DNA from: an uncultured virus (IMG/VR IMGVR_UViG_3300047462_000385)
Lineage: Duplodnaviria > Heunggongvirae > Uroviricota > Caudoviricetes
IMG/VR virus record: IMGVR_UViG_3300047462_000385
Coordinates: 1-64,000 of that record
Direction: 5' to 3' (one strand)
DNA: 64,000 bases
Shown one piece after another: positions 11,503 through 20,693 of this stretch. Position 1 is the first letter of the stretch; each line of letters starts with the position of its first letter. The notes beneath the pieces are model-generated. The model ran no database searches and had not been told where the DNA came from. It saw only the letters and a list, made by a program, of their open reading frames with translations. The position numbers and the translations under genes are program-made.

Positions 11503-12033
11503 ATGGAAAATTTCAAAGTCCATGGACCATATAAAAGAAGAGACGGCAGGCAAATCGTTATTATCATTGAGAATAATGGTAAACGTAGAACTGTATCTTA
11601 TCCAAAATGGTTAATGGAAATACAATTGGGCAGGCAGCTTGACCCAAATCTAGAGACTGTGGATCACATTGATAGTGATTTTAATAACAACGAATTAAGT
11701 AATCTTAGGATTATGCCAAGGAATGAGCATTCGACAGAAGATACTCGACGTGTTAAACCAGTAAAGTTTATTTGTGCTTGGTGCGACAAAGAATTTGAAC
11801 GTAGTCCTCGTCTAATCAGAGATAAGGCTCGTAAGAACAAAGCTGGTCCATTCTGTTCTAGGAATTGTGCTGGCAAGTATAGTAGACAGCTGCAACTCAA
11901 ACTAATTGATAAGTTTGATTCGCAGAAGGCAGTAGATAGTGAATACTACAAAAAGAAGTATGTAGCAGCATCTGCTCCAGTGATCAGTATTGATTACTTC
12001 ATCGACTATATGTGTGACGTTTGGGATGAGTAA
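11503..12033 (+). CDS. HNH endonuclease
   Basis: VDHIDSDFNNNELSNLRIM plus Zn ribbon. Confidence 0.85.
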   Translation: MENFKVHGPYKRRDGRQIVIIIENNGKRRTVSYPKWLMEIQLGRQLDPNLETVDHIDSDFNNNELSNLRIMPRNEHSTEDTRRVKPVKFICAWCDKEFERSPRLIRDKARKNKAGPFCSRNCAGKYSRQLQLKLIDKFDSQKAVDSEYYKKKYVAASAPVISIDYFIDYMCDVWDE

Positions 12034-12267: not shown

Positions 12268-12774
12268 ATGTCTAATATGACTATTGCGCAAGCGCTTCGT
12301 AGAATTAAGAAACTCAAGGGACAGATTGCTGAACATCAGCAACGCGCCCAATTTGGTGTCTCTTATGATGCCTCCAAGAAACCAGCCTTCCCATTTAAGG
12401 AAGCAGTGACTGCCATGTTTGCCATTCAAGACGAAATGGTGCAGTTAGAATCTCGCGTGGCAATCGCCAATGCGAGCGCAACCGTTAAAGACGGCAGCGT
12501 TGAAATGCCAATGGCTCTTGCCATTCGTACCCTTCAAGAGTTGAAGGGACGCATTGCATTCCTTAAGGGATTGCATTTGCGCAGTGAGACGGTGAAAGAG
12601 CGTCTGACCGAGTGGGATAACATAGAGATGAAAAACATCTCGCGTGTAACCGAAACGACTTTCGTTTCGGATCTCACCGAGCAAGATCGTGACTCTCAAG
12701 TCAAGAGCTTGCAAGATCGTTTTGAGGCGTTAAATAACGCAGTCGAAGACGCAAATCACGCCGTAACGGTGTGA
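12268..12774 (+). CDS. coiled-coil protein, DIP1984-like
   Basis: MTIAQALRRIKKLKGQI...IAIANA...LNNAVEDANHAVTV helical-hairpin pattern recalled from DIP1984-family proteins. Confidence 0.6.
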   Translation: MSNMTIAQALRRIKKLKGQIAEHQQRAQFGVSYDASKKPAFPFKEAVTAMFAIQDEMVQLESRVAIANASATVKDGSVEMPMALAIRTLQELKGRIAFLKGLHLRSETVKERLTEWDNIEMKNISRVTETTFVSDLTEQDRDSQVKSLQDRFEALNNAVEDANHAVTV

Positions 12775-12801
12775 AAAGATTTGCCCGTAAGGGCGCAGGA
12801 T

Positions 12802-13061
12802 TAGGGTACGCAAAACGTACTGTAAGCGACTGGAACCCCTCTCTCATAGGATAATGCCCTCGGGCATTCATTGAGTACAAATGGCTGCTCCTGATAAGAG
12901 CAAAACTCGCTTTCGATATCGATACTCTCCCCAGCGATCTTTAAGCTGGTTAGCAGTTAGCCTTTATAGCATCGTCAGCAGTAAGCTCTGAGCCATTAGC
13001 CATCAAGACTAAGCAGGAAGCATTTGTAAACCAGCTCCTTCGGGAAATTTTTCGTACCCTA
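12802..13061 (+). ncRNA. structured RNA with 7-nt periodic AGC repeats
   Basis: TAGGGTACG/CGTACCCTA closing stem, inner hairpins, AGCTGGTT/AACCAGCT stem enclosing about 10 NNAGCNN units. Confidence 0.65.
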
Positions 13062-13076
13062 TATTTTTATAAAGTT

Positions 13077-13406
13077 TGAGAGTGGATTGGACAATCGCGA
13101 TTATATCGAGGAAAGTCGGAGCAGTTAGAGCAACTTGCCAGGTAACGCCTGGACACCGTGAGGTGGTGGAAAGTGCAACAGAAAATATACCGCCCGTAAG
13201 GGTAAGGGTGAAAAGGTGAGGTAAAAGCTTACCGCATATTTGGTAACAAGTATGGCATTGCAAACCCCAAGTGCTGCAAGCCTAATAGAGAGTGACACGC
13301 TCGGTCAATACTCTCTGGTTGGTGCTAGAATGATTGGGTGACCAATCATCAAGATTAATGATTGTCTCGTTTTATAGACAGGACTCCGCTTATAGATCCA
13401 CTCTCA
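13077..13406 (+). ncRNA. rnpB: RNase P RNA, bacterial type A
   Basis: P1 TGAGAGTGGAT/ATCCACTCTCA; GAGGAAAGTC; GGAAAGTGCAACAGA; AAGGGTGAAAAGGTGAGGTAA; GCAAACCCC; ACAGGACTCCGCTTA. Confidence 0.93.
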
Positions 13407-13431
13407 TTTTTTATTTGGAGAACATGACATT

Positions 13432-13941
13432 ATGAAAATTATTCCCATTAAACCAATCACACCAGAATTAGTTAAAGAAGCAGAAGATTTAGCTTCTAAG
13501 GCGGGTCGATTAGAAGAACGAATTATTGAGCGCATTCACTATATAATGGTATCAATATTTAAAACCTTCAATAAAAAAGAAGCCTACTGGTATTTTTATG
13601 GAGCTGAAGAAGGTGATGTTGGAGACCTTTGGAAACATTATAATAAAGATGATATTAATGTGGTGGTAATTAATGCTGTTGGTGGTGACAAGATGATAAT
13701 CCTTCTCAAAGATGGAAGTGAATGGGGATTTGAAGATAGTATTCCAACACGATGGTTATTTGAAGACTTCGAAGAAGAGTTGTCTGAAGGAAAGAAAAAG
13801 TTTAAGGAAAAAGAAGAATCCAGGAAACTTGCTGAACAAGAAAAGCGGCGTCAGAAAAAAGACACTGATGTTGCTATCGCAAAAGTTGCCAAGGCAAAAC
13901 TTTCCAAAAAAGAGCTGGCGGCACTTAAAAGGACTCTATGA
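13432..13941 (+). CDS. hypothetical protein
   Basis: 169-aa ORF with GGAG RBS. Confidence 0.65.
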   Translation: MKIIPIKPITPELVKEAEDLASKAGRLEERIIERIHYIMVSIFKTFNKKEAYWYFYGAEEGDVGDLWKHYNKDDINVVVINAVGGDKMIILLKDGSEWGFEDSIPTRWLFEDFEEELSEGKKKFKEKEESRKLAEQEKRRQKKDTDVAIAKVAKAKLSKKELAALKRTL

Positions 13942-14552
13942 AAATAGATCTCATCTATCCAAAAATTCCAGAGAACTCTGATAAATTTCATGGCAAATGC
14001 ATTGCCTTTGAAAAGTATGATGGGACCAATCTACATTGGAAATGGGACCCTAATATGGGATGGTCTCACTTTGGAACTAGACGCACTCAGTTTACCCTGG
14101 ATAGAATTGGTATCGCCTCCTTCTCAAAAGAACATTCAGAGCTAGCATCGGCACCATATATTTTTAACGAAGCATTGCGCGATCAACTAACAATGTTTTT
14201 TTGCATAAATAGTGCGTTGCATCTACATAACATTATAGTTTTTACAGAATTCTATGGTCCTAACTCTTTTTCGGGCGGACATGTCGCACAAGATGATCAT
14301 AAGCTTGTTATGATCGATGTTATGATAAATGGCAGGTTGATGCCTCCCGAACAACTTATTCAAGACTTTTCCCAATTCGAAATTGCTAAGGTTATTTATA
14401 AAGGAAAATATTCCGGGCAGTTTGCCGAGGATGTTCGCAAGGGTAAGTATGATGTTAATGAGGGCGTGGTCGTCAAAGGCGTCGTAGATAATGAAGTTTT
14501 CATGACCAAGGTTAAAACTAAGGAATATCTAAAAAGATTACAGAAAAGGTAA
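13938..14552 (+). CDS. Rnl2-like RNA ligase/nucleotidyltransferase domain protein
   Basis: Motif I EKYDGTN, EFYG, EGVVVK, KVK. Confidence 0.75.
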   Translation: MKIDLIYPKIPENSDKFHGKCIAFEKYDGTNLHWKWDPNMGWSHFGTRRTQFTLDRIGIASFSKEHSELASAPYIFNEALRDQLTMFFCINSALHLHNIIVFTEFYGPNSFSGGHVAQDDHKLVMIDVMINGRLMPPEQLIQDFSQFEIAKVIYKGKYSGQFAEDVRKGKYDVNEGVVVKGVVDNEVFMTKVKTKEYLKRLQKR

Positions 14553-20601: not shown

Positions 20602-20693
20602 GGAAATGTGGGTGAGTGGATTATACCGCTTGTCTCTAAAACAAGAGACCGCCTAACGGTGGTCCGAAGGTTCGAATCCTTCCTTTTCCGCCA
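20602..20693 (+). tRNA. Ser-body tRNA with CTA anticodon (amber suppressor-like)
   Basis: CTTGT-CTCTAAA-ACAAG, long variable arm GACCGCC-TAA-CGGTGGTC, G73, CCA. Confidence 0.85.

Follow-up and report, generated by a model that had tools for sequence, protein, structure and literature searches.

A gene for a protein of predicted DIP1984 fold and a structured RNA with a seven-nucleotide AGC array form a linked pair in giant phages

Composition of the locus

The window, meaning the whole 64,000-nucleotide (nt) stretch of DNA that was analysed, covers positions 1–64,000 of a virus record of 130,362 b (IMG/VR IMGVR_UViG_3300047462_000385), which CheckV rated as ~30% complete; given this size and rating, the source genome is probably that of a giant phage. 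The subject of the present work is a module of this genome, consisting of a gene for a 168-aa protein, predicted to be a divergent relative of the DIP1984/DUF6847 family, and a structured RNA element of 260 nt, which starts about 28 nt after the stop codon of the gene and contains an array of ten AGC-bearing heptads (Table 1). The combination of such a gene with a structured RNA encoded on the same strand is a new pair, widespread in giant phages. The original prediction, which had drawn attention to the locus, gave the positions and the letters of the element, the gene, the closing arms, the stem and the repeat units, and all of them match the sequence.

Table 1. Coordinates of the module, its parts and the adjoining RNA gene in the window
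Feature	Position	Strand	Remarks	Basis
Gene of the 168-aa protein, predicted distant DIP1984/DUF6847 relative	12268..12774	+		open reading frame, profiles, structure model
Hairpin GCCC-GUAA-GGGC	12783..12794	+	GNRA-type loop; right after the stop codon	read from the letters
Whole structured RNA element	12802..13061	+	closed by helix P1	covariation, contigs
Segment d (CUGG)	12830..12833	+	can pair with segment c	duplex energy
Hairpin P3, AAUGCC-CUCG-GGCAUU	12853..12868	+	UUCG-type tetraloop	covariation
Hairpin P4x, UGCUC...GAGCA	12886..12902	+		covariation
Segment a (CCAGC)	12931..12935	+	possible small hairpin with segment b just 5' of the array	duplex energy, covariation
Segment b, AGCUGGUU	12944..12951	+	5' strand of the 8-bp stem (AGCTGGTT)	duplex energy
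Ten-unit array, U-N-A-G-C-(A/C)-N, then UUGU	12950..13023	+		letters, periodicity tests
Segment c, AACCAGCU (AACCAGCT)	13029..13036	+	pairs with b or d	duplex energy
RNase P RNA gene	13079..13408	+	adjoining neighbour, outside the module	Rfam RF00010

The heptad array and its occurrence downstream of related genes

In the window, the units of the array read TTAGCAG, TTAGCCT, TTATAGCATCG, TCAGCAG, TAAGCTC, TGAGCCA, TTAGCCA, TCAAGAC, TAAGCAG and GAAGCAT, the third unit being a long one of 11 nt. Adjacent AGC triplets are spaced by exactly 7 nt in five cases, whereas 300 dinucleotide shuffles averaged 0.26 such cases and never exceeded 3, and the period of 7 was the best among periods 3–12 (z 5.5), in agreement with the phased AGC array with free flanks that had been predicted. 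Across the whole record, AGC occurs in phase at 7 of 11 positions at 12977, while other trinucleotides attain no more than 5 of 11, which makes the array unique within the record. The period-7 array is not due to chance.

Searches with the protein showed that the array accompanies the gene in its relatives. Two of the 14 loci found in viral contigs end right after the gene, and the array is present in all the other 12 (7 distinct sequences); another round of scans, of viral contigs and of genomes, revealed the array in all further viral loci and loci of metagenome-assembled genomes (MAGs) with downstream DNA. Period 7 was the top period in 14 of 20 viral and MAG loci, and also in L049; the remaining six include L022, L023, L024 and L031, which have a hairpin inside the array, and L029, where the neighbouring coding region gives a stronger period of 3. 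In one clade (L022, L023, L024, L031 and L066), the inserted hairpin is GC-rich, measures about 20–45 nt and lies between units 6 and 8, with the phase resuming afterwards. Some of the module-bearing MAG contigs, including L017 (385 kb), L018 (971 kb), L015 and L016, are labelled Patescibacteria or Gammaproteobacteria and could be mis-binned giant phages or prophages.

A metagenome set comprised 67 loci, of which 51 remained after the exclusion of six partial protein matches and ten loci with less than 300 nt of downstream sequence. Period 7 was the top period in 39 of the 51 and reached z≥3.0 in all of them; two or more AGC-AGC spacings of 7 were present in 47 of the 51 loci versus one of the 51 coding and none of the 51 upstream controls. 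The removal of duplicates between the viral and metagenome loci (e.g., L063 is the same as L003, and L074 the same as L024) left 57 distinct regions. A closed period-7 element on the same strand thus follows the gene in every relative with enough downstream DNA, and among these loci no member of this protein branch lacking the element was found; the original prediction had proposed a pairing of protein and noncoding RNA, which homologs without such an element would have refuted.

The logo built from 324 in-phase units of the 57 regions consists of U (75%), a free position, AGC, A or C (40% and 28%, respectively) and another free position. According to automatic chaining, ten is the commonest number of units (26 of 57 regions), and 35 regions have 9–11 units; higher counts, as judged by eye, result from the chain extending into inserted hairpins or into helices on the flanks. 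Internally, the arrays follow a common order: two regular units, a long unit of 9–11 nt and six or seven further regular ones, with UUGU often coming next; the long unit reads UUAUAGCAUCG in the window and UCAGACUCG or UUAGAUUGU in other loci. At E≤0.01, a profile of one subgroup detected the arrays in 15 of the 19 other loci.

Fold of the RNA element

The element is closed by helix P1, formed by TAGGGTACG (12802–12810) and CGTACCCTA (13053–13061), and a U-rich tract lies 3' of the second arm. The score of this 9-bp helix was equalled by 85 of 165 shuffled sequences and, taken alone, is not beyond chance; P1 is supported by covariation in relatives, where GGG/CCC is replaced by GAG/CTC (L003) and GAA/TTC (L021). 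Only helices of at least 12 bp were enriched among the real sequences (17 of 55 versus 2 of 165 shuffled ones), and the closing helices of distant loci, 12–24 bp long, are unrelated to each other in sequence. The z-scores of the minimum free energy (MFE) of the whole element are weak on both strands (−1.65 on the + strand and −1.85 on the − strand), so that MFE alone neither indicates the strand nor proves the structure.

Covariation was tested on 23 pairs in four helices, with 12 close RNAs aligned. The proportion of paired cells was 86.6% compared with 79.4 ± 1.1% in shuffles, and 11 pairs had changed on both sides compared with 5.8 in shuffles, neither value being reached in any of 500 shuffles; when the partners were slid by 1–3 columns, only 29–48% of cells remained paired. 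The alignment contains 27 G.U cells versus 10 A.C cells. In hairpin P3, four of seven pairs show changes on both sides, and the loop is of the YUYG type in all 12 sequences on the + strand; in P4x, all four pairs show such changes, and 91.5% of cells are paired. The small hairpin following the stop codon is also kept in relatives, with stems GTCC/GGAC and GACTG/CAGTC and loops GAAA, GCAA and GTAA.

The array itself is flanked by segments capable of alternative pairing. The duplex of segments b and c, the 8-bp stem that had been predicted to loop out the array, has an energy of −12.7 kcal/mol in the window versus −4.9 in shuffles, with a mean of −10.0; the stem is only one of two mutually exclusive pairings, and it fails to form in L069 (−3.1). 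The duplex of d and c has an energy of −7.8 kcal/mol in the window and from −7.8 to −14.0 (mean −9.9) in all 12 group-A RNAs, and in this state, 12931–12935 and 12945–12949 form a small hairpin. The latter corresponds to the competing pairing of CCAGC that the original prediction had pointed out; the energy of the a–b duplex is −9.2 kcal/mol, and covariation is seen in this duplex, which reads CCAAC/GTTGG in L003 and L059 and CCAATTA/TAATTGG in L069. In more distant groups, a stable tetraloop hairpin is located directly 5' of the array. The array is unpaired in both alternative pairings, and the b–c and d–c states could constitute a switch.

Searches of region 12700–13120 against Rfam 15 revealed no match to the element at E≤10 on either strand, and the only matches at gathering scores near it were the RNase P RNA and tRNAs; four related loci likewise gave no match at E≤1. 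As regards coding potential, the element contains only a 36-aa open reading frame (12881–12991), even with TAG read through, and the pattern of conservation repeats every 7 positions instead of every 3.

Contigs from three metatranscriptome runs, identical to the window without a single difference, cover 12854–13052, 12815–13013 and 12863–13030, and jointly 12815–13052; a fourth run looks like a duplicate (X9 and X10 seem to be one data set filed twice). No such contig covers 12268–12774 or most of the RNase P gene, the uncovered part being uninformative by the rule of the tool, and the matches around 13168–13234 derive from the RNase P of other organisms. The covarying helices, the UUCG- and GNRA-type loops on the + strand and the RNA-library contigs together indicate that the element behaves as RNA.

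These features also bear on a different explanation, namely that the heptads are DNA sites, such as iterons or operator or centromere repeats, and that the RNA structure is incidental; heptad arrays bound by a DNA-binding protein are known from plasmid partition and repressor systems. Heptad DNA repeats spelled TNAGCNN do exist in viruses, with four in-phase units at at least 158 places in viral contigs; at 80 scanned loci (L127–L206), arrays of 4–12 near-identical heptads were found, often with an inverted GCTNANN set and several per contig, and these arrays resemble DNA iterons to which proteins bind. A DIP1984-like open reading frame is absent from all 80 loci; the scan caught another kind of repeat and is uninformative on the RNA considered here. 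The units of the module, by contrast, differ at their free positions, all run in one direction and number about ten, and the covariation of the flanking helices, the UUCG- and GNRA-type loops on one strand and the presence in RNA libraries also speak against DNA sites, which makes this explanation very improbable.

The position of the element relative to the gene suggests another possibility, in which the element is a cis-acting 3'-untranslated region (UTR) of the protein mRNA, involved in its stability, processing or autoregulation, and not a separate RNA. The short distance from the stop codon on the same strand, with no obvious promoter required, the conserved hairpin at the end of the gene and the U-rich tract after P1 are compatible with a 3' UTR. 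A stabiliser, however, would need far less than a conserved 260-nt fold of several helices with a constant number of ten units; moreover, about 170 nt or more separate the gene from the element in L022 and L067, and it is the element itself that is covered by the RNA-library contigs. Taken together, these observations render a role as a mere 3' UTR unlikely.

The encoded protein

The gene is preceded by an AAGGA box upstream of its ATG. Profile searches placed the product near the DIP1984 family, with a match to NF038048 (NCBIfam DIP1984) over residues 6–166 (E 8.2e-6, 26 bits; 24.5 bits in the genome search) and to PF20935 (Pfam DUF6847; 20.9 bits, E 3.7e-4), both scores being below the respective cut-offs of 70 and 27 bits; a few close homologs have a precomputed PF20935 match. 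AlphaFold 2 modelling predicted, with a mean local confidence (pLDDT) of 92.4, a structure of four helices and two β-hairpins. The VIA-align search revealed a clear similarity of the model to 3kdq, an uncharacterised protein of Corynebacterium diphtheriae (Z-score 14.5, root-mean-square deviation 2.4, 149 of 152 residues aligned; the next entry had a score of 9.1), and Foldseek gave TM scores of 0.76/0.83 for the same structure. The protein 3kdq is, in turn, similar to a canonical DIP1984 member, L048 (E 5.2e-18), which scores 147.6 bits on NF038048. The structure model thus indicates that the 168-aa protein belongs to a divergent branch that has the DIP1984 fold, and that it is no plain coiled coil. 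The original designation of a coiled-coil gene was imprecise about the architecture, and the label "DIP1984-like" holds for the fold of 3kdq, while the sequence scores stay under both family thresholds.

At 50% identity, the branch comprises 532, 295 and 185 clusters at E-values of 1e-3, 1e-10 and 1e-30, respectively. Nearly all its members are stand-alone proteins of about 165–175 aa, many of them encoded on contigs of 200–490 kb; the identity among the relatives falls to 36–37%, and the array is present in both AT-rich and GC-rich lineages. The pairing of gene and RNA is maintained in several hundred such clusters of giant phages, divergent in protein sequence. The invariant residues are mainly basic or polar (Q8, R11, K15, K17, R26, N68, K93, R141, N156 and N163), which fits an RNA-reading role without proving it.

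A tblastn search with the window protein and one GC-rich relative found no match in GenBank phages, and in Caulobacter phage phiCbK, no match was obtained with the family alignment A3, PF20935 or phrog_1491. The Pfam scan of the protein yielded only DUF6847 and DUF2443, both weak, and none of TRAP, HutP or a TROVE domain. Searches with the PADLOC defence and toxin–antitoxin models gave no significant match: three of four proteins had none, and one had a weak match to PDC-S57 (E 0.017). A match to PHROG 1491, annotated as "tail fiber protein" (E 8.8e-7), was rejected as a family label without support from any other result.

Genomic surroundings and the possible link to tRNAs

The adjoining gene 3' of the module encodes a class A bacterial RNase P RNA (257.1 bits, E 1.2e-82), and a full-length RNase P RNA was also found in the relative L003 (1852–2334; 262.5 bits). 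Of 50 related loci, 15 carry an RNase P core motif 3' of the module, all of them members of the closest clade, and the other 35 lack it, which indicates that the module is independent of RNase P. Among the jumbo-phage papers listed by a literature search, neither "RNase P RNA" nor "rnpB" occurs.

The window contains 25 tRNA genes, and it also encodes HNH endonucleases and an RNA-ligase-like protein. One HNH endonuclease gene (11503–12033, + strand) is located directly 5' of the module gene, and the RNA-ligase-like gene (13938–14552, + strand; PF09414, E 1.6e-7) lies two genes 3' of the module. A tRNA gene at 20602–20693 (+ strand), labelled "Pyl" by ARAGORN, has the anticodon CUA and a long variable arm; it may encode an amber suppressor, a hint of TAG recoding in the phage.

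The module is located within an RNA-gene island, and tRNA genes surround it in several lineages. This placement is in line with an explanation in which the array base-pairs with a GCU-N-A loop, for example the anticodon loop of tRNA-Ser(GCU), the RNA serving as a tRNA rack or sponge and the protein as a helper or chaperone. The anticodon loop UUGCUAA of the phage tRNA-Ser(GCU) can pair fully with UUAGCAA and, if one wobble is allowed, with UUAGCAG, the first unit; U1, A3, G4 and C5 of a unit would face A38, U36, C35 and G34 of the tRNA, with the free position 2 opposite position 37, which is usually modified. The invariance of AGC across very different hosts would also suit a universal target. 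Position 6, on the other hand, should be A against the invariant U33, and A occurs there in only 40% of units, with position 7 being free; a duplex of three to five base pairs would be weak if no scaffold supported it; no complementary GCU array was found within the 130-kb record; and the strict link to this particular protein is left unexplained. Pairing with tRNA is accordingly considered an improbable function of the array.

Canonical DIP1984 genes

Canonical DIP1984 genes are frequent on small plasmids (370 records, of which 342 are from Acinetobacter), and among 401 genomes sampled from one phylum, they turned up in only 6; this scattered spread is typical of accessory modules. In the available portions of the literature, the DIP1984/DUF6847 family appears only as an annotation, and plasmid papers use the label "septicolysin", for which they give no evidence.

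Unannotated gaps of 260–620 nt follow some canonical genes of plasmids and a small genome (L053, plasmid pAB0057, 1984–2182; L055, L054 and L048). By eye, these gaps are bounded by a long closing helix: its first arm is followed by GGGCGAGU with a GGCGAG motif, and ACUGAC precedes its second arm. In Streptomyces and Mycolicibacterium plasmids (L057, ~1770–1790; L058, ~1715–1735), a T-arm-like sequence, GGTTCGACTCC, was observed after a D-arm-like hairpin 3' of the DIP1984 gene, which suggests a tRNA-like elbow.

Comparison with known systems

Periodic triplets read by a protein are known from the Bacillus regulators TRAP and HutP. TRAP reads 11 triplets separated by spacers of 2–3 nt, one triplet per subunit of a β-sandwich ring. 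The array described here resembles the trp leader in being a single-stranded run of about ten triplets with free spacers, but it has a strict period of 7; the protein has a predicted helical DIP1984 fold instead of a β-sandwich ring; the trp array belongs to a 5' leader that decides termination, whereas the present one is enclosed, 3' of the gene, in a 260-nt RNA with a closing helix; and the binding is, in the present case, inferred. The HutP hexamer recognises two sets of three UAG-N4 repeats in a 5' leader. These repeats share with the array the period of 7 and the plan of a triplet with four free bases, and many units of the array also read UAG; the differences are the number of ten units, the AGC core, another fold with no Pfam match to HutP, and the location of the element downstream of the gene.

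The remaining systems are less similar in the arrangement of their motifs. CsrB and RsmZ, the RNA partners of CsrA and RsmE, are likewise small RNAs with many copies of a short motif that could titrate a protein, but their GGA motifs occupy hairpin loops at irregular intervals and the genes are not adjacent, unlike the linear, strictly periodic array joined to the gene of the protein. In type III toxin–antitoxin systems (ToxIN), repeats of about 36 nt (range 34–45) lie upstream of the gene for a Kid/MazF-like toxin, which cuts them. Such systems are also pairs of adjacent protein and repeat-RNA genes spread on phages and plasmids; the present units are 7 nt long, are downstream and are embedded in a folded scaffold, and there was no significant PADLOC match. 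Ro is a large TROVE ring, and its Y RNA has no periodic array. The Ro (Rsr)/Y RNA pair and the module have in common the side-by-side location of protein and partner RNA in bacteria or phages and a long terminal closing helix, but the module has a periodic array and no TROVE-type domain was found. Beyond the periodic triplets, none of the defining features of TRAP, HutP, CsrB, type III toxin–antitoxin or Ro/Y systems was found in the module. A literature search for heptad-repeat noncoding RNAs in phages, with most subscription journals outside its reach, found none.

Discussion

The gene pair probably encodes an undescribed protein–RNA particle. The strict linkage of the two genes, the fold of the RNA and a single strand of fixed length with a triplet every seven bases and free spacers led us to propose that the neighbouring protein reads the heptads, with about ten protein units per RNA, and by analogy with known readers of periodic triplets, this proposal can be held with modest confidence. 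According to it, the RNA would be a stable small RNA, in which the folded 5' domain, composed of several small hairpins, and the closing helix would hold out an unpaired strand of about 74 nt. This strand would be a putative binding platform for the protein, probably oligomeric, with one protein unit docked on each of the roughly ten AGC marks. Access to the array could be opened or closed depending on whether the strand 3' of it pairs with segment b or with segment d.

Several observations weigh against the reading of the array by the protein. Canonical DIP1984 loci of bacteria and plasmids have no significant period-7 array, 7 being the top period in one of seven, and the nhmmer profiles of groups A and B match none of the seven canonical downstream regions. 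The DIP1984 fold has no known RNA-binding relative, and its sole clear structural match, 3kdq, is without a known function. The invariance of AGC across such divergent proteins could reflect, instead of a protein reader, a universal RNA target. With regard to the RNA itself, the RNA-library contigs give neither the strand nor the ends, and such libraries may contain DNA; the covariation shuffles leave sequence relatedness in, and related sequences can surpass shuffles without any structure. A real fold is nevertheless favoured by the slid controls and by the very different closing helices of the distant loci.

As a guess, the module may take part in RNA metabolism during infection or form a self-contained circuit with the RNA titrating its own protein. 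Both guesses start from its position: it is surrounded by tRNA genes, and the phage RNase P RNA comes immediately after it in the closest clade. As a gene-pair ribonucleoprotein, the module would be categorically new, and its likely mode of reading would resemble, by analogy, those of TRAP and HutP. In a broader and more tentative form, the proposal would embrace a new class of ribonucleoproteins of giant phages, and perhaps of plasmids, with about ten proteins of the DIP1984 fold, one per seven-base mark, and marks differing by subfamily; this wider generalisation is possible but rather doubtful.

If the protein does read the array, the module would add to the known structured RNAs a class that is missing from Rfam 15 and is tied to a protein family of 532 clusters, and the strict 7-nt code with ten units would make it an unusually clean system for a protein assembly reading single-stranded RNA. 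It would also offer a concrete lead, open to experiment, on what the DIP1984/DUF6847 family, with its solved structure, does. In the broader form of the proposal, this family, annotated as "septicolysin" on hundreds of plasmids, would thereby acquire its first function, and the module would exemplify an undescribed mode in which proteins gauge and read RNA. Since the module is placed in RNA-gene islands, it may have a bearing on the handling of tRNA and RNase P functions by giant phages.

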